Shown here piece by piece: positions 1 to 16,059 of a DNA stretch of 16,059 nucleotides. The stretch's first letter is position 1. Every line of letters begins with the position of its first letter. The DNA comes from Plakobranchus ocellatus (lineage: Eukaryota), in contig BLXT01005793.1 of the NCBI GenBank assembly GCA_019648995.1, forward strand, positions 717,157 to 733,215. Reading direction: 5' to 3'. The position numbers and the translations under genes were made by a program. The notes below the pieces were generated by a model. It ran no database searches. It had not been told where the DNA came from and was given only the letters and a program-made list of their open reading frames with translations.

Positions 1-31
1 TAGTTTTTTCCTGCGTTGGAACTCATTTTAA

Positions 32-246
32 CTAAGGATATCATGCGGACATTCTGATAAACTGATGCCTAAAGCTCACACCTGTGGCAGTATACGAAGA
101 ATCCTGCAGATTTATGGATTCAAAACTGAAAGCAAAGAGGCATACAGAGATTTCTTTGACAGAGCCACAGCACTTCCTAAAAGCCATGCAGACACAGACA
201 ATAGAGTATTTTTTTATCCAATCCACCAAAACCTTTCAATGTAGAC
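32..246 (+). other. Possible 3'-terminal coding segment of a convergent neighbouring gene (…HTCGSIRRILQIYGFKTESKEAYRDFFDRATALPKSHADTDNRVFFYPIHQNLSM*), unidentified
   Basis: There is a stop-free plus-strand frame from 32 to the TAG at 244-246 in a region that is less AT-rich than the introns. It is not in the ORF track because it has no start codon. I recognise no family. It could equally be 3' UTR or intergenic sequence. Confidence 0.15.
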
Positions 247-2562
247 ATAATATGCATATTTAGTGAGCGTTGTTTTGCCCTCGTTTTATTTTCCTTGACC
301 TGTTGTTTTCCATCAATCTGCAGATGGAGTTTCATAGGTCCTCCGCCATTTCATTGTTTAGTATGTGAAAAATTGCACACTGGCACTGGAACCCATTTCT
401 ACCCTGACATGGTGGCAGCTTTCAACGGCCGACCCTCTGATTGTTATCCTCCCAAGTGGTTACAAGATGAAGCTGGACCTAGCTGATGTTTTAAAATAAT
501 GATAATAATTTTTATAGTCTAATTTTTGTAACTTTCTCTGCATTATCTTTTAGCCAAAAAATGGGGTAGAAGAGGAGACTTATATTCAACATAATCATGC
601 AAATATGAAGCTTGCAAACAGAAAACTGGATCATCCCATTGTTAAAACTTATCAAGTGCTAGATAAGACAGTTTTATAAACTGGTTGAATTAATAAGAAA
701 AATATGTTGTTTGTGCAAATGTAGAAACTATAATGGATGCTGGTTCTTTATCTTCCGTCCAGCTTGAGGGGGCTGCCATTTTTCAAATTTATGCCATGAT
801 GACAAACAGTGTTTGAAAATGGATCATTTAATAAAAAAAAGAATGTAATATTAACTCTAATTTGGAGATAAATCTTTCCATTTTATTCTCTTTCTATTGG
901 TATTTGTTCAAATATTCAAATTTTTAAATATTCCTTCCAACCAATGCTGTGTCTTATACATCTGAACCAAGTGCATGTGTATATAAGCACAGTGTGTGCA
1001 TAACGCAAGCATTTTGTTTGAAAAATATACACCGTTACACCCTATCAGTGGTAAAAAAAAATGTGCAAACAAAAACAAAATATCTGAAACGTTTAATATT
1101 GAACTAAAACAAATATTTAAAATAATTTTATCTCACTGAATTTTCAAATAAATGAAGAGATGATTGCCTTTTAAAAATTATATTTACAAAACAAATACAG
1201 CAGCATTTAGAGATGGAAAAATGATTTGCCTCTTTTAGTTTTGGCTTCTTTTATTGTTGAAAATGGTTACTTAGCATATGGGGGTCATCTAAATTATTGG
1301 GTTTGTCAATTTTAGACTGCACTGATATAGCTACCATAATGACCCTTGTATGTGTAAGTGATGTTTGTAAACAAAGTCAACTGATCAAAGTTGGGAATCG
1401 AATAATAAAGGATTGTAACTTTTTCATATAAACCAAAAAGGAATTGAAAAAGAATTTTTTACGTATCTAGGAATGAAAAGTGTTTATTTGTTGCAAAACC
1501 AACTTTTTTTACATGTAAGAATCACAACAAATCTTTTACTTTTTTACAATAATGCACATAAGTTGATACTTTATAGAGAGAGAAAAGAGGTATTTGAAGC
1601 AGAGTAGCATAGACACAAGTTATAATCATTTGAAACCTCTGATTTTATATTTGTCTCTTTAAATGAAACAAAGTGTATGCTTAAGTAAATAAAAAAAAAT
1701 TCTACATTATATAACAAAGGGAAAGAAATTACATCATATGCTCTACACATTTGAAATGTTGCATTGATCTTTCTTTTTCTCCAACAATGAATAAGATAAG
1801 GATCCAATGAATTGTAAATCATATAAAAAATGAGCAAAAAATATTTTTGTGTCTTCATAAATGTCCTGAAATGTTGGTCATGTCTTAAAGAAATGTATCA
1901 CCTCTTAAACTGATAAAAAAAAATAAAAAAAAAGTGAAAAAAGTTGTAAGAAACACCCTTCAAAAGCATAAAGGGTTGTGATATCTTATTTTAAAAAACC
2001 CACACACATAAAATAAGCTGTAAATAGGCTTGATGAATTGAAAATGTTTAAAAAAAAAAAAGAAAGAAAAGAAAAGGGAATATCATTCTGCCTTAAGGCA
2101 ACATAATTCACACAAAAGATGAAAAAAGGATGAAGTGAAGTTTAAATATGATCACAGTGGATTTTTCAACAATATCTTTTATGATTATTTATGAAACATG
2201 GAGCAAGACAAACCACCAAACTTATGCTAAATGTATCAGAGAAGATAGACAATTATTCAAACCCATCCATGTTAGAGTATGCATGGTGGCCTGGGTGTGC
2301 AAATATTTTACACTATAACTACATATTAGTCACAAACAGAAGAAAAAAATAGATTCTCTATTTGCTGATTCTGGTAGAAATTGAAGAAGGATTTATATTT
2401 TTTTAAATGTATAAATACTTTGGAATATATTTTTTAAGATAATCTTCAAGAAGATCTCAAATTCTTTCAAATGAATTACAATGAAAATTCCTGAGGTATT
2501 AAAAATGTGATAGATAGCTTTTAACTCTTGCAGAAGATAAATTGAAATAAAAAATAATGTAT

Positions 2563-2568
2563 TTAATG
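2563..2568 (-). promoter_or_regulatory. MVP: Candidate poly(A) signal ATTAAA (plus-strand tttaat), about 230 nt downstream of the MVP stop codon
   Basis: First AATAAA/ATTAAA-type hexamer on the minus strand downstream of the stop at 2796. No canonical AATAAA (plus-strand tttatt) occurs between 2400 and 2795. This is an inference only. Confidence 0.3.
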
Positions 2569-2795
2569 CAATTCATCACAAGAGATCTCTTAGATTAGGT
2601 TATTCACCAGTAAAAAGACTTTTCGTTTTTAAAATTATCGTAAACAAAAATCATTTTAGTACAAAATATGAGCAGTGAAAAAAACTGTAAAACTATAATT
2701 CAGTCTGGACATTAATATCATCAGCACTTGATATTCGAAACAGTGGTCTTAGAGTACTTGATGGATCACGCAACCTACATCTGGTTAATTCAAAC

Positions 2796-2936
2796 TTATT
2801 CATCATCATCATCCTTGGAGGCTTTGGCTGGTACCAGGCCACCAATTAGGCCAGAAGCAGTATTGAACAGGTTTATGGGAGATGAACCATCTGTGATGAG
2901 TGTCGACTTCAACCCCAGCGCCTGTAGCATGCGCAC
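2796..2936 (-). CDS. MVP: Major vault protein, terminal coding exon ([46 protein letters not shown])
   Basis: Reverse-complement translation matches the MVP cap-ring/C-terminus motif ([21 protein letters not shown]). Acceptor on the minus strand is ttctttattcatcag|GTGCGC (exon upper boundary 2936). Stop is TAA at 2796-2798 (plus-strand tta). Length is 141 nt (46 codons plus stop), phase 0. Confidence 0.88.
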
Positions 2937-3286
2937 CTGATGAATAAAGAAAACAAATTAGCTATCTGATGGAGCAATGATCATTTCTCATCCTAAACCC
3001 TTCTCCTTACTGTTCAATCCTCTAGGCCACAAATCCTTCACAGCTGTCAACTAGTGGAAACTCTAGTTATTAACAAGATTGGCTACACAAAAGATGAATT
3101 CCCTCTTATAAATCATAAAACAGCAAAACAGTATTATTTTAACCAATTTTCCTTACAACAAAACATATACTGAATTGAGTTCCTTTTTTTTTTAAACGGA
3201 CAAACATTGTTTCTTACAATAATTTTTGTTTACCCACACCCAGCATACACATGTATGGTCTGGAAAAATTGCTCAAAGGAATATAC

Positions 3287-3475
3287 CTGCATATCTGGAC
3301 CAGCAGTGGCCATGGCAAGAAGTGTATTGGATCCAATGGCGTCCACCATCTCCTTGAACTTGTTGATCTCGATAGATGAGAGCTCCTGGGCTTTTTCCAC
3401 CGCCATCTTGTTCTGCTCAGATTCATATTTGAGTTCAGCCTCGCGGGCTAGTGTGAGACGGTTCAACTCAGACTC
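3287..3475 (-). CDS. MVP: MVP exon (ESELNRLTLAREAELKYESEQNKMAVEKAQELSSIEINKFKEMVDAIGSNTLLAMATAGPDMQ), cap-helix coiled coil
   Basis: Colinear with human MVP ...[41 protein letters not shown]. Minus-strand acceptor is tattttttatcttag|GAGTCT and donor is CAG|gtatat. Length 189 nt, phase 0/0. Part of track ORF 3230..3466(-), whose tail (VYSFEQ...) is intron read-through. Confidence 0.9.
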
Positions 3476-4111
3476 CTAAGATAAAAAATATATATTTTGG
3501 TGGATTTCAAGTTTCCATCATAACAAAAAAGTTCCTCAAATTCATTTAGCAATTTATCATATAAAATACAGGCTTGTCATTTAAAATCACAATAGGACCA
3601 TTTTTTAGATGTTAAAGGGGCCCAAGGCCTTTTGTTTTCTATTCCTAAATTCATTTGAGACTTCCTTTTTGAATAACTGAAAATTAGTCATCTGCAGTGC
3701 CAATTGCTGTAAAAATGTGTAGTTGTCTAGTCTCATAAAATGAGTGGTGCAAGAAAAAAAAAAACAATACTTTATGCACAGAAAGTCGCAATATGATTAA
3801 GAAAAATCTACATTTAGAAAAATTTTAGAAAAATGAAATATTTTTTACCCTTCTCATTTACAAAATTTATTGAATGTCAAGTCGATAAAAGCATATCTCG
3901 GTTAATTATAGCCATGCTGTTTTCTCTTCTCGTTCATAAAATAGCCATTTATGAATTCTTCAATGAACCTATTTTTGTTTTTATTCCTTTTCCTTCTCTT
4001 AATGGATATTGCAAAATAATGAAAACCCTAGACCTCAATTACAATTACCTTAAATTGCAAAATGACATTCAATGCACATGCAAAGTGAATGTTTTTTTTT
4101 TGTTTTTGTTT

Positions 4112-4126
4112 TATATATATATATAT
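4112..4126. repeat. (TA)7 microsatellite
   Basis: tatatatatatatat in an AT-rich intron. Confidence 0.8.
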
Positions 4127-4627
4127 CATATTATTTCTAGGTTTATAATACCTGATACAATGAAATTTTTCAAATATTAGTTTATTTTTCGTTGAAATAC
4201 AATCCTTTAAAGATTATGGAGTGATAAGCATACACCAAAAATCTTAAATATCCTACAAATCTAAATAAAAAATCTAACTTGAGAAGCATAGACATTCATC
4301 AAAAAAAAAAACAACAAAAAATTACTCCCAAAAATATAATTACATTTGTGAAAAGATTGGCTCTAGAGTTCAAGATATAGAGTAGAGTAAGAAAAAACAG
4401 AGTCTCATCAAAGAAAGTTTCTTGCATTCGAGATAGACAATGATATTTTTTACATGATAAAAATATCTAATATCTAAATCCACTGATTAATATACCAAAT
4501 AAAGAAAACAAAGCCCATAATTAATAGCTCACAAAAGCAGAAATAAATTTCATCATAGTGAAGTAATCATGAACCCAAGAAGAGATATATATATACTAAA
4601 GAAACCATGCCGAGTAGAACCACTTAC

Positions 4628-4871
4628 AGCCTCAATCTTGTTTGCCATAGACTTGAGCTTGGCTTGTTCCACAGCAGCTTCACCTTCAATTTTGGAGGCT
4701 TCCGCTCGACTCTGGGCCTCTGCCTTAGCCTGGCCAGTGCTCTCAACAGCTGCACTGTTGGCCTGGAGCTCCAGCAGTTGCTTTCGTGCCTTCTCCGCCT
4801 CTGCCTCATCAGTGATCTTCTGACGCTCAAGCCTGCCCTTAGCTTCTTGCTCAAGACGCTCAGCCTCATGC
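4628..4871 (-). CDS. MVP: MVP exon ((R)[81 protein letters not shown]), cap-helix coiled coil
   Basis: Hand reverse-complement translation has no stops and aligns to human [65 protein letters not shown]. Acceptor is tttcttcacag|G and donor is GCT|gtaagt. Length 244 nt = 1 + 81 codons. The true frame is absent from the ORF track because the exon has no start codon. Track ORFs 4569..4823(+), 4607..4891(+) and 4624..4869(-) are wrong frames. Confidence 0.9.
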
Positions 4872-5503
4872 CTGTGAAGAAAGGTTTATGAATTGATAAA
4901 AACTGTAATAATTATGAAATGACTTTAAGAAGAAAAGAACAAAATAAATATATTTATTCAAAGTTAATCCAAACTAAAACAACCAGTGCAAAAGAAAGAA
5001 TCACAAACAAATTCCTACCCAAACCAAAAAAGTTATTAAATTTACCAAAAGCATTTTACCCATTGGATTTTGTCAAAGAAAAACTGTTTTAAACTAATTG
5101 GTTGCATAGCCAAAAGCATCGACAATTAGGAAAGAAAAAGCGAAGGGTCAACCTATATGATAAATCCATCTAGCATAAGCATTTGGACTGTCATTAAAAT
5201 TGTAGCTTTCTTTTTTCTTTATCGGTAATAAAGAGGAACCGCACACATCAAGCTGCAGATCTACATGACTGATTTTAAAAGAATGGCTTAAATTAAAGAA
5301 AAAGAATTACCACTGCTTTGTGTTCAGAAATTTTAGAATATTTATAGACAGTTCTGCAAGTAGAGAAATGAGACTTTTTTCCTTTTTTATTTGGGTTTAT
5401 AATGTAAAGTCACTTGTGTTGATTCACAACTTGACTCATTTTGTAAAGCTCCTACACAAATTACATATTAGACTTGAAATACTATAAGACTAGTCAAAGT
5501 TAC

Positions 5504-5715
5504 CTGGCAGCTGCCTCCTGAGAGTTGGTTGTGATTTCAATTGCCAGCTGAACAGATTTTTGCAGTGCATCTCTGGTTCTTTGGTCGACTGGCTCCACAG
5601 ACTGGATATCAATGCTGGTGATGACCAGGTTGTTCTGAGGGAAGTTGAAGTGCTCTTTAACTTTCCCATTGGTATCCATGCCAAATACAGAAGCGCGGAT
5701 GATTTTGGCCGAGTT
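5504..5715 (-). CDS. MVP: MVP exon ([70 protein letters not shown](R)), shoulder domain
   Basis: Matches human NSARIIRTAVFGFE...[48 protein letters not shown]. Acceptor is tttcaaccag|AAC and donor is GCC AG|gtaact. The split Arg codon (AG|G) is completed by the first base of exon 4628-4871. Length 212 nt = 70 codons + 2. Confidence 0.9.
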
Positions 5716-6145
5716 CTGGTTGAAACACAAGATTACTCTACTTAGAAATGGCGTTCCAGAAATATGATGAATAACAAGAGGATGTGGTAAGGACCACTAA
5801 AGAAAGAATAAATTATATTATGTCTTGAGGCTGGTATAAAAGAGTCACATGCTGCATAAGCATAAAATTTTTTTAAATGTTCATTGCTCATACTAAAAGA
5901 ACAAACTTAACCTTGATGTGCTTTTATCATTGTTAAATACATTTGAAAGAACAATGTCAAAATGTGACAGGCAATACTTAAAATGAATCATGTCTACTCT
6001 TGCATCACTTTTGAGTTTTATTTCTAGGAAGAATGTTTGCTTAAAATGGAATTCGGTAATCTTTACAATACAACAAAAAAAAATCATCATGAAACCATCA
6101 TACAAATGATACCAATATTGCCAAATACAAACTTTTATGGCCTAC

Positions 6146-6287
6146 CTTGTGGAAGTCATCAAACTGGACTTGAGCCACAGCTCCTCGCACACGGGATGCA
6201 ATTGCTTTACAAGCGTCTCCTGTAAAGTCGGGCACACTGAAAAGCTTGGCTGCCTCTTCTGGGGTCTTGCTTGTATAGGCAAAATGC
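6146..6287 (-). CDS. MVP: MVP exon ((W)[47 protein letters not shown])
   Basis: Matches human [48 protein letters not shown]. Acceptor is ttctgttcctgtag|G and donor is AAG|gtaggc. Length 142 nt = 1 + 47 codons. The W codon is split TG|G with the upstream exon. Confidence 0.9.
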
Positions 6288-6911
6288 CTACAGGAACAGA
6301 ATAGCAGCAACTTAAACTATTGTATCATATGTTTAAGTGATTTATGACAGCAGAAGCAAAGGTCCATTTTTTTTCACCTGTTATCCCAAAACAAGGGATA
6401 TTCTGTTCATATCATCTCAACCAATGATGATTCTCTAGTTGTCATTTTTTTTTTAATTTATTTCACTTGACATTTGAATATTTTTCAAAATACTTTTACT
6501 CTTATTAATATTTGCCCTAATTTGGGCCTTTGAAAAAAAACTAAGTAGATCTGTCTATTTTTTTTTTTCAAAAACATTGCATGTTTTCAGAAAAAAACAA
6601 ATGACACATGTAAAAAGAAACTTTTCTATAGGCGAGTCAGGGTTCACAATTATAAAAATACAAATAGAAAAAAAAAAAACCTACAAGATTATTATCATCA
6701 AATGTAATGGCATATCATGCAATTCCACTATGACTGAAGTGCATTTCTTTATATGATACATCCCATCAAAAACAGTTTAGGCTAACATATCTGGTGGTCA
6801 TCTGGTATTTTGGCTGAATGGCATTTCACTAATGCTAATTGTATTGGTACCTAAAATAAACCAGACTATATCTTTTGAATATATGCAAGAGAAAATCATT
6901 CCAAGACCCAC

Positions 6912-7109
6912 CAGTTGTAGGAGAGCTGCAATGAGAGCCTAGCATGGTCTGCTGTCTCTACCACAATGATATCAGTGCAAAAGTCTGGCCCAAGCAGCAG
7001 GCACAGAGATTTGATCATGTTGGGCTTCTTGGGCTTCCCTCCAGACAGACTCAGCTGGGTGAACTGCTCATCAGGGCCCAGCATCACAAGCTCAGGCCCG
7101 AACACAACT
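6912..7109 (-). CDS. MVP: MVP exon ((R)[65 protein letters not shown](W))
   Basis: Matches human [67 protein letters not shown]. Acceptor is ctcctttttgatcag|A and donor is AAC TG|gtgggt. Length 198 nt = 1 + 65 codons + 2. Confidence 0.9.
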
Positions 7110-7872
7110 CTGATCAAAAAGGAGAGGAGAGAATTATATAATTATAAGAGTCAAGACCCAAAATTGCACAGTGATTGTGGGTTTCTATCACTTCAAATTT
7201 ATTATTGCACTCATAATTTAAATCAAAGATAGCAACAGGATAAATATTTTTGGGATGAATAAAAACAGAACTTCATAAATGAAGAAACATCTTGAAATAT
7301 GTCTAAATCAGCCTAAAGACAGACTTTAAATATTTTTCCTCTTTGAAAGAGCCTGAAACTTCTCTTTTTGTGCTTTAAGATGGTGAAAACTGGATGCAGT
7401 TTTGTTGATTATGAGACGAGACAAAGGTTTTTTATTCATTTAAAAAAGACATTTAACAAAGAAAAATTAACTCATAATTTCTTTTTCTTTTTTTCAAATT
7501 TTTCATATGTTTGTTTAAGATTAAGCCCAAAACAAAAATTTAAACCATTTATATAAAGATCAATTCTCAGTGAGATATCATACCCTGCAAAAGAAGAGGG
7601 AGAAAGCATTTGACAAAGATCTTTGGGATACTAATATAAGAGAGAAAGTACTGCTGGGAAAATGCGCATAACAGAAGAAAATGAAATAAAACTAACAAAT
7701 AAGATAATGTTTGCCTCACAACATACAGCTTTGTTTGAAAGAGAGAGAAACACACTAAAAGACTCTTCAATAGGCAGCAATGCATTTCAATAAAAGTGTT
7801 TTTTTTTAATCAGATAACAATAGTTTTTAGAATCTACTGTCAGATTTCTAATTTTAGAACGAAAAAGGAAAA

Positions 7873-7950
7873 GTGAGAGGGAGAAAAAAACAGAAAGAGA
7901 GAGAGAGAGAGAGAGAGTGAGAGACAGAGAGAGAGAAAGAAGGAGAGAGA
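7873..7950. repeat. (GA)n microsatellite / polypurine tract with pure (GA)10 at 7897-7917, flanked by imperfect GA/GAA repeats
   Basis: Direct reading: ...gtgagagggagaaaaaaacagaaagagagagagagagagagagagagtgagagacagagagagagaaagaaggagagaga. It is intronic, between MVP exons 6912-7109 and 8090-8322. It generates the spurious SLSLSL track ORF 7787..8080(-). Confidence 0.9.
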
Positions 7951-8089
7951 TAAAAGAATAATGTACTTGTTGTGCTTTCTTAAATACAAAGTGTTCACAT
8001 ATATTAGAGAGCAAAGAAAAAAAATTTAATGGCCAGATTGTAGGAGGGTTAACTTTAAAATGAAAGAGAAAGGTGTGCAAGTCTCAAAC

Positions 8090-8322
8090 CTGGCTTTTTT
8101 CTCTTTGTAGTCATAGATCTGAACAGCAGCATTGTGAGGAACACGGAAATTGACCACTCTGGTCTTGTCTCTAGCCTTGTGAGCATCTCTAGAGTCTTTG
8201 CGGTCACTTCGCTCTGCTAGATGGTCGACTGTAAGCAGATTTTCAACAGCAGGTGGGAGCTCTTTTGCCCAAAGCTCCTCATCTTGATTAAGCATGTAAG
8301 TGACACCTTGGATAGCACGGAC
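8090..8322 (-). CDS. MVP: MVP exon ([77 protein letters not shown](R))
   Basis: Matches human [30 protein letters not shown]...[25 protein letters not shown]. Acceptor is ttattacctttcag|GTC and donor is GCC AG|gtttga. Length 233 nt = 77 codons + 2. The split Arg codon AG|A is completed by exon 6912-7109. Confidence 0.9.
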
Positions 8323-9300
8323 CTGAAAGGTAATAAATCCATCAATAGTTAGCACAGGATTTTAGTCATTTAAAAAACTGATGTAACAAAGCCCTTGAAA
8401 TTACTTATCATCTGTAGATTCTGATAGACTTGTGAAATTCATTATTTGAATTTATAACTCAACATTTATTACAACCCACTCCCCACTTCCAATCTCTTCT
8501 CATCCCAAAAGAAACTATCAACAAAAAAAAAAAATTCCACTAACAAACAATCCTTGGAGATTATTTTTAAGATTCTACACTATGAAAACATTACTGGAAT
8601 CAAAAAATGATTTATTTGAAGCCTTGTGACAAAATGAGTAAGTGAAGATTTGGCCTAACAATTTGTAGCTGGTTTAATTATTTATAAATGATTATATTTT
8701 CTATGTCTATGGCTGGTTTTAAAGAAATATACAGTCTATAACAAACAATGTAATGTCACTGTGGTTGATAAAGATTGCCATGAATCTTCTTTCAGGATAT
8801 TTTAAATATTGTCTAGGGCTAAAGCATATAGAAACTTATTTTTTCAGGGGTTTTTTCTTCATTGATAGGCTTTTACTTTGATGTACAGGCAAATGTCAAC
8901 ATAAGATGCTTTGCTAGTACAAGTGATGTTGTGGCTGTCCTTTACATTCTATTCTATCCTCAATGTTGTTCAGAACAGGTTTATTCATCTCACGGTGAAT
9001 CTACAAGAATGCTCTTTAGCACAAATTATATTAACATCTCTATGGCCAAGATACTTTTTATGCATCACAGAAATTATTTTCATATGATGAATGAAAAGAG
9101 ATGCACAAACCTGCAAACTTCAAATTGCAGTTCTTTCTTAGACTCTTAAACTTGTGCTTTTCTTGCTTATATTTTGGCTTCTTTCTCTTCAAATATCAAA
9201 AAACAAATGATTTTATGTTTGATGAGTGGTTTTGAGAGGATAATTTAATGCATAAAAAATGAGCAGCTGGGAAATATTATTGACAGGTCTTGTCATTTAC

Positions 9301-9450
9301 CTTTCCACTCTTGATGTCTCTCACATATATGCCTTCATTTTCATCCATAGGGATTGCTTGCCTCTTCATAACAACTTCAACTTCTACAGGTGGGACATAT
9401 TCCTTTGGACCTCTGATCATCCATCTGTCCCCAGGGCTGCGAGATACTTG
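9301..9450 (-). CDS. MVP: MVP exon ([50 protein letters not shown])
   Basis: Matches human [47 protein letters not shown]. Minus-strand acceptor has a very strong Py tract: ttttttttttttttaccttttttctttccccatcag|CAA. Donor is AAG|gtaaat. Length 150 nt = 50 codons, phase 0. Confidence 0.9.
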
Positions 9451-9463
9451 CTGATGGGGAAAG

Positions 9464-9669
9464 AAAAAAGGTAAAAAAAAAAAAAGAAACAGTGACAATG
9501 TGTAAGTGACAAGCTGAAAAGCAATGTGTGAAAAAAAATGCAGGCATAAACAAAATTTTCATTCCTTTAAATGAAAATTTTGTTTATGCCTGCATTTTTT
9601 TTCACACATTGCTTTTCAGCTTGTCACTTACACATTGTCACTGTTTCTTTTTTTTTTTTTACCTTTTTT
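9464..9669. repeat. Perfect inverted repeat (palindrome) with 100-bp arms (9464-9563 and 9570-9669) and a 6-bp spacer (ccttta, 9564-9569)
   Basis: Hand reverse-complementation of 9570-9669 reproduces 9464-9563 exactly. This includes the 13-nt A run (9473-9485) versus the T run (9648-9660), and ggt...gaaac versus gtttc...acc. The first mismatch is at 9463 (g) versus 9670 (a). The mirror-image track ORFs 9377..9562(-) and 9528..9722(+) are a by-product of this symmetry. Confidence 0.95.
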
Positions 9670-10595
9670 ATATACATGCATTTTTTCTCCACTCATTACT
9701 AGTGGGTTTTTTTTTCTTTTAAAATTAACAAATTAACTGTAATTGAATATTCATGAATTTTTTTTTTTTCTCATTTGGCTTTGATTAAACCTAAGATGAT
9801 GAAGCCATTAACTGATTCTGGAAAGATCACGGTTGACTACAATGTAATTTATCAACATAGATCTTAATACCAGTTCACTGGTTCTTCAAGGATCAATTTA
9901 TATCATTTTCAATGGTCCACATATTCTTTTTTCCCTTTGCTTTAAATACATACTAAACAACAAAGAATGCATCATTCCCTTTATACAATCAAAACTTTGT
10001 TGCAGCACAATAATTCTCCTAAAATTTAATTACCATTTTGTACCCCCTGAAAAATGACATCCTTGACGAATTAAGTTTTGCACACAGCTAATTTGAACAG
10101 AAACTTTATGTTGGAATGTTAAAATATAAAACTCACTACTTGACAGTAATGCTTTTAGACTGGAGGCAAAAAGTTATGATTTCTAAAACTTAGCATCTTC
10201 TTTCTTTTTACAACAGCAAATATATCCCTTACAAATTATATATTTTTATTTTTTATCCATATTATTAACTTTGTGGGAATAATTTTTCCTGCTGTCAAGT
10301 GATTATGCTGCCTAAGTTATTCAGGCTGTTTATCAAACCACTTTTGAGCAATTAGTTATTTTTTTTAGGTAAAGATTCCATATAAATGAACTCTTTTGGG
10401 TCTTGGGTGAAAAAAATCCTAATAAATATATTTTGCTTTAATTTCAATTATGCAAAGTTCAAATTGAAGCTACAAAAGTCAGAAAAAAAATGCTTATTTC
10501 TTTGTTTATTAAAAAAGATGATGATTCTTACAGTCACACTGAGAAATAGAAAGCAAATGTAGAGGATTCACAATTCAAATGACCTTGATACTCAC

Positions 10596-10715
10596 CCCAT
10601 CCATAAATGACTCTGTAGCCTTAAGAATGAGGCCCTCATCCTCTCCCATTATGTACACATTCTGGATTCCTTTCTCCAGTTTTTCACCAGGCATCAAGAA
10701 AAATGACTTTTCACC
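10596..10715 (-). CDS. MVP: MVP exon ([40 protein letters not shown])
   Basis: Matches human [40 protein letters not shown]. Acceptor is ttcctgacatttag|GGT and donor is GGG|gtgagt. Length 120 nt = 40 codons. Not in the ORF track because it has no start codon. Confidence 0.88.
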
Positions 10716-11706
10716 CTAAATGTCAGGAACATATTGAAGAAAAGAATTTTACTCCACAACACAGTCATGTCACATAAGATAAATTGTCTTGAGATCTGTC
10801 CCAAATGAGTTGAACAAGACATTTTTGACATTTTTTTTTTGGTTGCTTTTTTTTCTTTTTAAACAACCTTAAATGCTCATATATTTGTATCCAATATTCA
10901 GTAATACAAAGCTCAAAGAATTCAATTCCAGACAAAACCACTAATTTAAAATCTTCAAAATGCAACTTGCCACTTCTTTGGACCGGTCTTGACACAGTTA
11001 TCAAATCTTTTATGAAAGCCTGCCAGTTTCCTTTATGGCTACTTCCACTAAGTTAAGGTTATGAATTTTAACAGCCTAAACATTGTCAACTCAATAGCAA
11101 GTAATGATGACTTTCAAAAAAAAAAAAGTGTCAATGAACTATTAAACTAATTTTAAAACTGCGCAGAAATTATAAACCTGTCCCAATAACACTTATCATC
11201 TCAAATCAAGCAGATGGCAGATGAAAAAAAAAAAGAAAAGGTTTCAACGTTTCACTAAATGCTAATATACATCCTTTTTTTCTTTTATATTTAGTAAAAT
11301 TTGAGGAAATAAAAAAGGTTTTCTCATGTAATAAAGATTTTTTTTTTTGCTGATTATACACTAATAACAAAAGAGAAAAAAATTGGTTACAAGATCAGTA
11401 CTAAATGATTCTGAAATAGCTGATAACAGCTTCATGCAAAGTAAATAAATCCTTCATATGAAAAATTTCAGAAAAGGTGGAGAAGCTCATGTCTTGCTTC
11501 AGAACTTAAATATACTTCATTTTCTCTTTTATTCAAATTTTTCAAAGGCCAGAACAAATAAAATTTATTTTCATTTTTTCCCTCTTTTTAGAGGTTGGAA
11601 GGTCAAATGGAGTAAATTAAAACTAAAGATCTCAATTACAATTTTCACTCTCCCCTCATTTATACAAGTTTGAATACATTTTCAATTTGTGCACCCTTTG
11701 GTTTAC

Positions 11707-11817
11707 CTTGACGAGTTTCTTTTGGCCTAGTTGGGGATGTCCCTGGGCATCTGTTGGGTCCAGGATCACACAATACTGGCGGTTGTTAAGAGTTGTGATG
11801 TTCACAACACCTACAAC
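11707..11817 (-). CDS. MVP: MVP exon ([37 protein letters not shown])
   Basis: Matches human [37 protein letters not shown]. Donor is AAG|gtaaac. Acceptor is taken as aaaactttttag|GTT (first base 11817), which gives phase 0 consistent with the upstream exon ending on a complete codon. A second AG 7 nt downstream (first base 11810) would break the frame. Length 111 nt = 37 codons. Confidence 0.82.
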
Positions 11818-12138
11818 CTAAAAAGTTTTAAAAAAAAAGAAATGGCAGTTTAGAGGCGCTAAACCCCGCAAAAAAGACTGTGACTGCTTTACATCTTACC
11901 CCGCAGCATATATAACAGCACAAGAGAGTTTAATTCATAATTATTTTGTTCTTCATGTCAAGCGCCCAATTTGAAAAGGACTAGATCTATATTATTGAAA
12001 ATCTGCATTAACAGCCATTCCCAAAGACAATTCATGAACAAAGCCATGTTTGAGACCACATTATTAATCACCAGTATGGCTCTCAACTATTATACCACCG
12101 ACACTATCAAATTTTTAAATGGAAAAATAGATTTATAC

Positions 12139-12296
12139 TTAGTTATTGGTAACATATACCCAATGAATGTATTTTATATTCCTAATACTTACACTTAGTT
12201 ATTGGTAACATATACCCAATGAAGGTATTTTACATTCCTAAGACTTACACTTAGTTATTGGTAACATATACCCAATGAATGTATTCCACATTGCTA
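12139..12296. repeat. 56-bp tandem repeat (minisatellite), about 2.8 copies, unit ttagttattggtaacatatacccaatgaatgtattttatattcctaatacttacac
   Basis: Copies are at 12139-12194 and 12195-12250, with a partial third copy at 12251-12296. There are a few substitutions (gaatg/gaagg, ttttat/ttttac/ttccac, aatact/aagact). It is intronic, between MVP exons 11707-11817 and 12643-12768. Confidence 0.9.
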
Positions 12297-12642
12297 CGAT
12301 TCATTCATTTGTGTATTTTTCTTCTTGATATACAGGGCATTTTATAATGATTATTTCTAAATATCAAATAATTATTTTTGAAATATCTGGTAAAAGTAAA
12401 TAAAAACCTTATTCTAAATAAAAGTGAACTTGGATTACAAATTTACTCTAATCTAAGAAAAATTGATTTTAATATCTTTTAATTTCAAAACCTCCATTTC
12501 ACTAGTCATGACTATATCCTAATATCAGTTTAGAAGCTGGTAAACAAACTTTTCCACTGGAAAAAAAAATTTTTCATCTAAAAATCTATGCATACATAAA
12601 ATATAATTCTTTGAATATCAAGACACTGAGCATATAAATTAC

Positions 12643-12768
12643 CTCTTCATACACATTTGGAATATGTGTCTCTGTCTCCTTCATTGTAATCAGCCATTCC
12701 TCCCCATTCTTTCTAACAATGCCAAAATCATCTTTGAAAGTTCTAAGGGCTCTCATGTGAAGGGCTTT
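12643..12768 (-). CDS. MVP: MVP exon ([42 protein letters not shown])
   Basis: Matches human [42 protein letters not shown]. Acceptor is ttttaccataacag|AAA and donor is GAG|gtaatt. Length 126 nt = 42 codons. Not in the ORF track. Confidence 0.88.
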
Positions 12769-13699
12769 CTGTTATGGTAAAAGCAAAGTCGGATAAGTAA
12801 AAGAGTGAGAGACAAAACAATTATTAGGTACTGACCCATATGTGTGTTAAAGATTTGATGGAATTTATTTTAAAAATTATATGCCAAAGCAATGAGTTCT
12901 ATTGCCATGAAAGGAGATATGATGTAATGGGAACATGCATTATAAATATTTGTCTTAACATTTTAAAATAAATTTCTCTAAAAGAGTTCAAGAGATCTGA
13001 AAATGATTGATATCAATCAACATCCATGTCAATGCTCTCCAGTTTGCATTCATGTGTATTTTTCTATCAGCTTTCAGCAAAATGTGTGATTTTTTATGGT
13101 ACCTAAGAATCTTGAAGATTTTATAACCAAAATATTTTTTTTCTTCTCTATGTGAGCATGTGTGTGTTTTTTAGTGGGATTTTTTTTTGTTGTTGTTGTT
13201 TGTTTTCCAGTAATGAATGCTACAAAACTTAAAGGAAAAATAATGTAAATAAGAAATTCAAAGCTTATATAATGACACATACACTTGGAATCAATTTTTC
13301 AAATTTGTATTTCTGTACATTTTTTTTTTCTCAATATATTGAAACCTATGTGATCCCTCGCAGTGGCCCATCACTATCACAAATTTTTTAAAGTTTATTT
13401 TGAACTTATACTTCAGTTTTCTTGGACTGCTAGTGTGAGATAAGGTAAAATGTTGAATTTTAAAGGTGTGAACTCAAAAAAAAAAAGCACAGCTGAAAAC
13501 AACAAAATTGATGAAACAATACTTAATTATGTATTCAATATAGCAAAAATTATGAAGAAAAAGAGTGAAAACCATGCTGTCAGAATTTTTTTTATAAGAC
13601 TTAATTAATTGAACATCTGATAGCATTGCTAGATGCGGTCTTAACATTAAATTGATATGCAAAAGATAATTTGAAATCAAGTTAAAATGTTGAACAAAC

Positions 13700-13929
13700 C
13701 TTCTCTGTGAGCACATAGGCATTAACAATATCCACAACCTCCTCATAGGCCCCAGGCAAATATGCTCCTGTCTTCTTAACCAGCCACTCTTCCCCAGTCA
13801 CCCTGGGAATGCTATCTCCACGAGCCACACATTCTTTGCGTGCTCTCAGACGGATGGCTTGGTTTGGGCCAATCACAGTGGCACGAATAGTCTCTTCCAC
13901 AACACATTCTTTCCTTGGAATATAGGTGC
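13700..13929 (-). CDS. MVP: MVP exon ((G)[76 protein letters not shown])
   Basis: Matches human [76 protein letters not shown]. Acceptor is ctaaactttgacag|GC, where an in-frame TAA just upstream forbids extension. Donor is AAG|gtttgt. Length 230 nt = 2 + 76 codons (phase 1 at the 5' side). This is the most 5' exon I can find in the window. It lies within track ORF 13682..13936(-). Confidence 0.88.
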
Positions 13930-15482
13930 CTGTCAAAGTTTAGATCATAGAGAATTGCAATTAGAACTGATGTGTTTTGTTGTTTGTGGCTGCAAGTACA
14001 GCAAAACTGCCTCTCGCTATCAAAAGGTGTTAAAAATTTGTTTTTATGATGAGTTTTGGTGCAAATTAAAGTGATCAAAGCTAAACTTACATTTAGAGGG
14101 GTATTCTTAATTTCCACCAGCTAATGTGTTCTATCTTCAAGCAACCTAATGGATGTCATAATCACGGCTTTAGGTAGTGATTGAAAAAAAGGGCGGGAAA
14201 AACATTATGTTGCATACCATAGGAGACAATCATTAATATATATTGGGCAGCACAAGAATACATTCTTATTTTTCTCTGAATTTTCATTTGTATCTATATT
14301 TTTTTTTTTTTATTTAAAAAAACTACACTGTAATTTTGTCCTTAAGTCAGAAGGTTAAGGACTAAGACTAATGATGGATGATTTTTCTGAAGAACTTGCT
14401 TTATTTTTGCACTTTGGTCTGAAAAAAATTAATTTTACATTTATTTTCAGATTTGGTGGACATATACTATGGCTAAAACAAATTTGATGGTGCTAAACAA
14501 CTAAATACATCCACATCTGATGTTGTGCTTCTTTCATATTCTAATCCCACCCTATCCACATTCTTTCCTCTCTTTCAGAAAGCATAGGATTTCTTGGCAT
14601 TCTAGTGAACATTTAAATGTTTTTTAAAGGAAGGGAGAATAGGCCTGGGAGATAAGTTATTAAAAAATGATTGGCACTGATTTAAATCTTTAAACCATTG
14701 TGCAATGTAACATACGAGAACATAATGATTCCATATTAAATCACTAGTTGAGTTACGTTAGCTATGTAGTTGAAGTTAAATACATGCTGGTTTAAGTTAG
14801 GACCAAACTTTAATGAATATCAATCAGAAGAAGCTCTCTCAAAATTCAGTTGCGGTAATTTTCCATTACTAAGAAAAGTAGTTCATCTGAACACTTTCAA
14901 TTTGAAAGAAATCAGATAATTGCTTCTTAAAATATAAATGAATTACATGAACACATGTGAATAGACAAAAAAAAATTGTCAGAGTTAGTGGATGTATGCA
15001 TATATAATGTAAAAATGAATCCCTAATTAGATCAAAATGGAGACACTATTTTCTTATCAGATTGCAGGACTCATACCAGTAACAATTACGTGAAAATAAC
15101 TCGAGATTACAGAGTGAGTTAAGTAAAAACTTCAGGACAGCTATTCAAAAGTATACCATGATATTAAGCAGAGGTTAAAAATTTAACACAGTCTTCAACA
15201 GTCTCTTGTTCAACTTCAACGTCTTGACTGCTAGTTAATTTGCCCTGTGTCATTAAGACAATTTTCCTTAATAGCTAATCTAGATCTATCTAAAAATTTT
15301 TAATTCATTTTTATCTCATCAAGAGTCTTTCTAGATCAGGATTTACATCTAATCTATAGCTCATGTGGAGCAAAAATGGGTTAAATCTTCAGCTAGAAAT
15401 AAATATTTGGCCAATTAAATAAACGGAAGAAATGCTATTTAAATAATAACTCATTAACAGACCTGCCAACCCCAATTTGTTC

Positions 15483-15536
15483 TCACAGGAATATTCACCT
15501 CTACTCACAGGAATATAGAAAGTCTCACAGGAATAT
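15483..15536. repeat. Short tandem repeat: tcacaggaatat recurring 3 times with a 20-22 bp period
   Basis: tcacaggaatat occurs at 15483-15494, 15505-15516 and 15525-15536, separated by divergent ~8-10 nt linkers. Confidence 0.7.
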
Positions 15537-16059
15537 GCCAGTATACAATTAAATGCGCATGGATAAACCGTATTACACCTTAATTATAGACTCGACCATA
15601 GACATTCCATATCATTTAAGTATAATATCAGAGGACAATTAATGCATTTTCGACTCGAAAGATGCAAGAAAGTATCCCCATACTCACTGCCATTAGTCCA
15701 ATAATGTTACCATTTATCAAGCCTTAAAGACCTGTAGGCTTAGGGCCTGGATGATGAATTTTTTAAAGGTGCAGTACAATGTATAAAAATTCAAAATCTA
15801 GCTCATTCAATAAAGGGTTACATGAAGAAAAAAAAAAATCTATGTCAGACAGGTCTACAGAATCTCAGTAAGGCTTAATATTGTGACCCATTGTATATTA
15901 AATAAAAGAAAACATCGAATTTTTTTTTTTTTTTTTACAGAGATCCCCGCAAGTCATGTCGGCCTACAATGTATTAATGTCTGTGTAAGCTAAGGCCTTG
16001 ACTAAAGCCTAAATTAGATCTCGAGGACCATTATCAAATTTTGATTATACATGAAGAAA

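Follow-up and report, generated by a model that had tools for sequence, protein, structure and literature searches.

The 16,059-nucleotide (nt) stretch of Plakobranchus ocellatus DNA analyzed here (contig BLXT01005793.1, positions 717,157 to 733,215 of the forward strand), hereafter called the window, carries on its minus strand a chain of twelve coding exons of a gene for Major Vault Protein (MVP), flanked upstream by intron sequence that runs past the window end and downstream by 2.8 kb of DNA in which no second gene was detected. MVP is regarded as ancestral in eukaryotes (PMC3762200), and 78 copies of it form the shell of the vault particle, with the N-termini at the waist and the C-termini at the caps; in each copy nine body repeats (R1 to R9) and a shoulder are followed by a cap-helix of 155 residues and a cap-ring, and the human gene has 15 exons (PMC7916137). 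The window is AT-rich, with a guanine-cytosine (GC) content of 29–37% across 1-kb windows, and contains no N bases.

Six-frame reading of the minus strand revealed 12 clear MVP stretches within 13939–2799. When the 12 segments between 13929 and 2796 were joined via 11 introns, a single open frame of 697 codons followed by TAA was obtained, with no internal stops or frameshifts in the joined exons. All introns start with GT and end with AG after a pyrimidine-rich tract (22/22 splice dinucleotides intact), and the 11 complete ones are between 350 and 1152 nt long. The exons stand out by composition as well, as their GC content is 48.8% vs. 29% in the introns. Twelve GT-AG-bounded segments giving a continuous protein had been proposed in the initial annotation, and the joined frame bears this out at every junction, including the three split codons as they had been given, i.e., R as AG/A at 8090/7109, W as TG/G at 6912/6287, and R as AG/G at 5504/4871. 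The borders of exons 13, 7, 6, and 5 had also been given exactly, while the remark that these four exons were invisible among the open reading frames (ORFs) holds just for exon 13, for which no ORF was called in the reading frame of the exon; at a threshold of 40 amino acids, ATG- or TTG-started ORFs at 10575–10697, 11656–11805, and 12586–12756 partly cover exons 7, 6, and 5, respectively. The first exon in the window begins in phase 1 (x/GC = Gly) behind an AG acceptor, which marks position 13929 as a true acceptor at an internal exon border and not as the start of the gene. Exon numbers in Table 1 follow the snail genes described below.

Table 1. Features of the window (position 1 is its first nucleotide; UTR, untranslated region)
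Feature	Position	Strand	Description
MVP coding exon 4	13700–13929	-	230 nt; phase-1 start at AG acceptor; (G)TYIPRKE...VLTEK; end of R3 and next repeat; position and phase shared with Biomphalaria and Lymnaea exon 4
MVP coding exon 5	12643–12768	-	126 nt; joined frame, cDNA alignment, snail gene structure
MVP coding exon 6	11707–11817	-	111 nt; joined frame, cDNA alignment, snail gene structure
MVP coding exon 7	10596–10715	-	120 nt; joined frame, cDNA alignment, snail gene structure
MVP coding exon 8	9301–9450	-	150 nt; both ends phase 0; joined frame, cDNA, snail gene structure
MVP coding exon 9	8090–8322	-	233 nt; 3' end in split codon AG/A
MVP coding exon 10	6912–7109	-	198 nt; 3' end in split codon TG/G; repeat R9 and start of shoulder
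MVP coding exon 11	6146–6287	-	142 nt; shoulder domain
MVP coding exon 12	5504–5715	-	212 nt; 3' end in split codon AG/G; end of shoulder and start of cap-helix
MVP coding exon 13	4628–4871	-	244 nt; cap-helix
MVP coding exon 14	3287–3475	-	189 nt; end of cap-helix
MVP coding exon 15 (last)	2796–2936	-	141 nt including TAA at 2796–2798; cap-ring and short acidic tail ...KASKDDDDE
3' part of intron preceding exon 4	13930–16059	-	>2130 nt, cut by window end; no MVP coding sequence
3' UTR and downstream intergenic DNA	1–2795	-	AATAAA/ATTAAA hexamers after the stop; second gene not detected
Perfect palindrome in intron 7	9464–9669		two 100-nt arms and 6-nt spacer

The partial protein was assigned to MVP by its domains and by alignment to solved structures. 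Pfam returned MVP_shoulder (1.7e-53), Vault (4e-47), Vault_3 (2.4e-33), Vault_4 (6e-19), and Vault_2 (5e-12), and the three Vault matches as well as Vault_2, Vault_3, and Vault_4 all scored far above the curated gathering scores. The shoulder (PF11978) was matched over its full length (1–118 of 118) at residues 363–480 of the partial protein, directly after the repeats. A sequence search against the PDB gave an end-to-end alignment with residues 150–850 of solved mammalian MVP chains (E 5e-299), which spans the last part of R3 and all repeats up to R9 and continues past the shoulder as an ungapped alignment of the cap-helix and cap-ring (chain residues about 640–850). The greater part of R3 is not covered by the window, and neither are R1 and R2, the repeats through which the two half-vaults touch at the waist. 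The identification as MVP, colinear with the human protein and passing through shoulder and cap-helix to a short acidic C-terminus, as the initial annotation had it, is backed by the Pfam domains, by the match to PDB residues 150–850, and by an identity of 87–94% to mollusc MVPs; the tail ends in DDDDE. Although the rat and human chains (PDB 4v60, 4hl8, 9z4w) are colinear over residues 150–850 with each domain matched, the loops of the window protein are shorter in repeats R7 and R8 and in the shoulder, and the long proline/glycine-rich extension at the C-terminus of human MVP is missing from it.

Support for the gene structure was drawn from other species. A complementary DNA (cDNA) contig from a related species (L001, encoding the protein P0001) was compared with the window by blastn and aligned in exactly 12 blocks at 79–84% nucleotide identity, the ends of which coincide with the predicted exon borders within the few bases of chance extension. 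In addition, the MVP exon chains of the Hygrophila snails Biomphalaria glabrata (L004) and Lymnaea stagnalis (L005) were rebuilt exactly from their genomic loci. Both genes have 15 coding exons of 137, 196, 124/121, 227, 126, 111, 120, 150, 230, 198, 142, 212, 244, 189, and 150 nt, and the window exons, with the lengths listed in Table 1, correspond to snail exons 4–15. In the protein alignment all window introns (11/11) occupy the same column and have the same phase as introns 4–14 of both snails, while snail intron 3 (phase 1) sits exactly at the start of the first exon in the window. The domain set is the same and exon lengths are equal in 9 of 12 cases, the differences being one additional codon in each of exons 4 and 9 and a tail shorter by 3 codons. 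Most introns are longer in the window (7 of the 11 complete ones exceed their counterparts in both snails). At the nucleotide level conservation with the two snail loci was confined to exons, and a search for conserved non-coding elements against them yielded none. Neither the 12 cDNA blocks nor the identical snail intron positions placed any junction elsewhere than had been proposed.

The best match in the protein collection was P0001, an 856-residue MVP from RNA-seq assemblies (SRR22428377/79/81) with 94% amino-acid identity, and no protein in the collection was more than 94% identical to the window MVP. Annotated MVPs of Hygrophila, i.e., Biomphalaria glabrata (P0004), Bulinus truncatus (P0002), Physella acuta (P0003), and Lymnaea stagnalis (P0006), showed 87–90% identity over all 697 residues, those of land snails and slugs 84–87%, and those of other gastropods and bivalves about 79–85%. 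In a neighbour-joining (NJ) tree based on 697 shared columns the window protein was placed as sister to P0001 within a clade of heterobranch 'A' MVPs. P0001 is the closest relative by tree and by sequence (about 80% at the nucleotide level), but its R8 loop is longer by one residue and its C-terminal tail by 6 residues. Tree position and best identity of 94% together indicate that the source is a heterobranch gastropod whose own MVP is absent from the protein database. Two MVP paralogues were observed in separate clades in Lymnaea, Physella, Biomphalaria, and Arion (A: P0006, P0003, P0004, and P0009; B: P0068, P0075, P0091, and P0081, respectively). The window protein is 86–90% identical to the heterobranch A copies vs. 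76–78% to the B copies, and both its placement in the A clade and the shared column and phase of all its introns identify the gene as an A orthologue.

Coding exons 1–3, which encode about 152 residues, were sought in 13930–16059 on both strands by six-frame reading, tblastn, and blastn, and were not found in this interval. For tblastn (word size 2, E ≤ 10) ten mollusc MVPs were used as queries and the matches of the two closest, P0001 and P0002, were inspected; their N-terminal residues had no match in 13930–16059, where the sole hit was a 13-residue chance match (E 8), and secondary matches elsewhere in the window were cross-matches between vault repeats. Similarly, nt 1–1093 of the cDNA contig remained unmatched in the window by blastn. 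Snail exons 1–3 measure 137 + 196 + 124 = 457 nt, i.e., 152 codons plus one base, and end in phase 1, so that the phase-1 first exon of the window fits the missing three. The initial annotation had already noted that roughly 150 N-terminal residues are not encoded in 13930–16059, on which all three approaches agree, and had placed the gene start and promoter probably past the window end. As exons 1–3 are absent from the 2130 nt upstream of exon 4, we likewise take a start and promoter beyond the window end as the simplest reading of the sequence. The intron preceding exon 4 measures 1032–1110 nt in Biomphalaria and Lymnaea and would exceed 2130 nt here, which agrees with the greater length of most other introns in the gene.

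The missing 5' part also lends itself to another explanation, namely that the window holds a dead copy of MVP, either an unprocessed pseudogene or a gene truncated at its 5' end, in which exons 1–3 were deleted and the remaining exons are unexpressed. Exons 1–3 leave no trace in 2130 nt upstream where the homologous intron spans 1.0–1.1 kb in two snails, and multiple MVP genes are indeed present in heterobranch snails; yet 697 codons have been retained without a stop or frameshift and with every splice dinucleotide intact, and with 7 of 11 complete introns longer than in both snails a longer intron 3 is unremarkable. Substitution patterns also argue against a dead copy. Between the coding sequences of the window and of the cDNA contig, differences numbered 44/20/333 by codon position, i.e., mostly at third positions, with proportions of 0.038 at nonsynonymous (pN) and 0.71 at synonymous sites (pS), and a ratio of nonsynonymous to synonymous substitution rates (dN/dS) of about 0.018. 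As synonymous sites are near saturation, P0001 comes from a different species. Judged from these codon differences the gene is under strong purifying selection and is not a decaying copy. In the tree, moreover, the window copy sits on no long branch and joins the conserved A orthologue. No frame-disrupting difference, which had been named beforehand as a mark of a pseudogene, is present, and the pseudogene reading was rejected on the intact frame, the dN/dS of 0.018, and the A-clade position; we consider it very unlikely. Even less plausible, to the point of being negligible, is that the gene is the divergent second (B-type) paralogue of heterobranch snails instead of the main orthologue: such a second copy does exist in the four genera listed above, but the window protein falls inside the A clade of the NJ tree, is clearly closer in identity to A than to B copies, and is encoded by exons with the lengths of A genes, and this identity was rejected on clade placement and identity.

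We therefore favor, with a probability of about 0.95, the reading that the window contains coding exons 4–15 of the 15 coding exons of a heterobranch gastropod A-paralogue (single-copy-type) MVP gene on the minus strand, with coding exons 1–3 and the promoter located upstream past an intron of more than 2.1 kb. Several points weigh on the other side. Support for the splice junctions comes from the cDNA of a different, related species and from conservation of gene structure. Promoter, start codon, and the codons of the first 152 residues are absent from the window, hence the completeness of the gene is what we infer. The perfect 107-bp hairpin beside the exon 8 acceptor (see below) could disturb splicing if it is real. 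Finally, in Biomphalaria glabrata (L004 24078–32312) and Lymnaea stagnalis (L005 22992–30423) a Med24 gene (PF11277) lies convergent with MVP, 1.8–2.6 kb past its stop, and the Med24 last-exon peptides from these two loci were unmatched in 1–2795; with only 2.8 kb available and a generally larger spacing in this genome we regard this as uninformative rather than contrary.

Intron 7 contains a palindrome with two arms of 100 nt each (9464–9563 and 9570–9669) that are 100% complementary and separated by a 6-nt spacer, located 13 nt from the 3' splice site of exon 8. Read in the direction of transcription, the intron ends naturally in the proximal arm, which takes in part of the polypyrimidine tract, and the distal arm repeats the proximal one exactly in inverted orientation. 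The predicted RNA fold is an uninterrupted 107-bp stem (-160 kcal/mol, z = -27) ending 7–13 nt before the exon 8 acceptor, and nucleotide comparison with the two other snail loci revealed no counterpart. As the arms are perfectly identical and the borders sharp, the palindrome is due either to a template switch that very recently duplicated the sequence in inverted orientation or to an artefact of the assembly or the reads. We give only a slim chance to the possibility that the palindrome is real, with the last part of intron 7 duplicated in inverted orientation by a very recent template switch, and that the pre-mRNA forms a hairpin in which half of the polypyrimidine tract would be buried along with the likely branch-point region. 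If so, the hairpin could modulate splicing, with in-frame skipping of the 150-nt exon 8 (a segment of the body repeats), or could feed ADAR or Dicer pathways. Two further repeats were observed in introns: a tandem repeat of three copies of a 56-nt unit in intron 5 (12129–12296, copies 86–93% identical), and an imperfect (AG)n microsatellite of about 30 units in intron 9 (7892–7950), the source of low-complexity 'SLSLSL' ORFs on the minus strand.

Downstream of the gene, the first minus-strand AATAAA/ATTAAA hexamers lie 229 and 1308 nt past the stop. The GC content of 1–2795 is 30%, and within the flank it was 35% in 1–1000 compared with about 27–29% in 501–2500. A plus-strand open frame of 93 codons (205–483) had no Pfam match and is possibly a repeat fragment. 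More generally, ten of the longest open frames outside MVP, taken from flanks and introns, were without a Pfam match at E ≤ 0.1, a transfer RNA search of the whole window found none, and an Rfam search over the same stretch found no family at its gathering score, vault RNA included.

The 697 encoded residues begin near the end of R3 and continue with R4–R9, the shoulder, the cap-helix, and the cap-ring before closing in a short acidic tail. By homology, 78 copies of the full protein would build the vault shell, with the N-termini at the waist and the coiled coils of the cap-helices bundled into the caps, and homologues of PARP4 and TEP1 together with small RNAs may reside in the lumen. MVP has been annotated in dozens of molluscs, has been studied in mussels, Aplysia, and Biomphalaria, and appears routinely in mollusc proteomic and immune studies; the gene described here is a routine orthologue of this well-known protein. 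Its significance lies mainly in annotation: an exact, cross-validated model of exons 4–15 is provided for the gene of the source species, the 5' end of which is to be looked for upstream of the window end, and the palindrome is flagged as a possible sign of misassembly or of a structural mutation of recent date.

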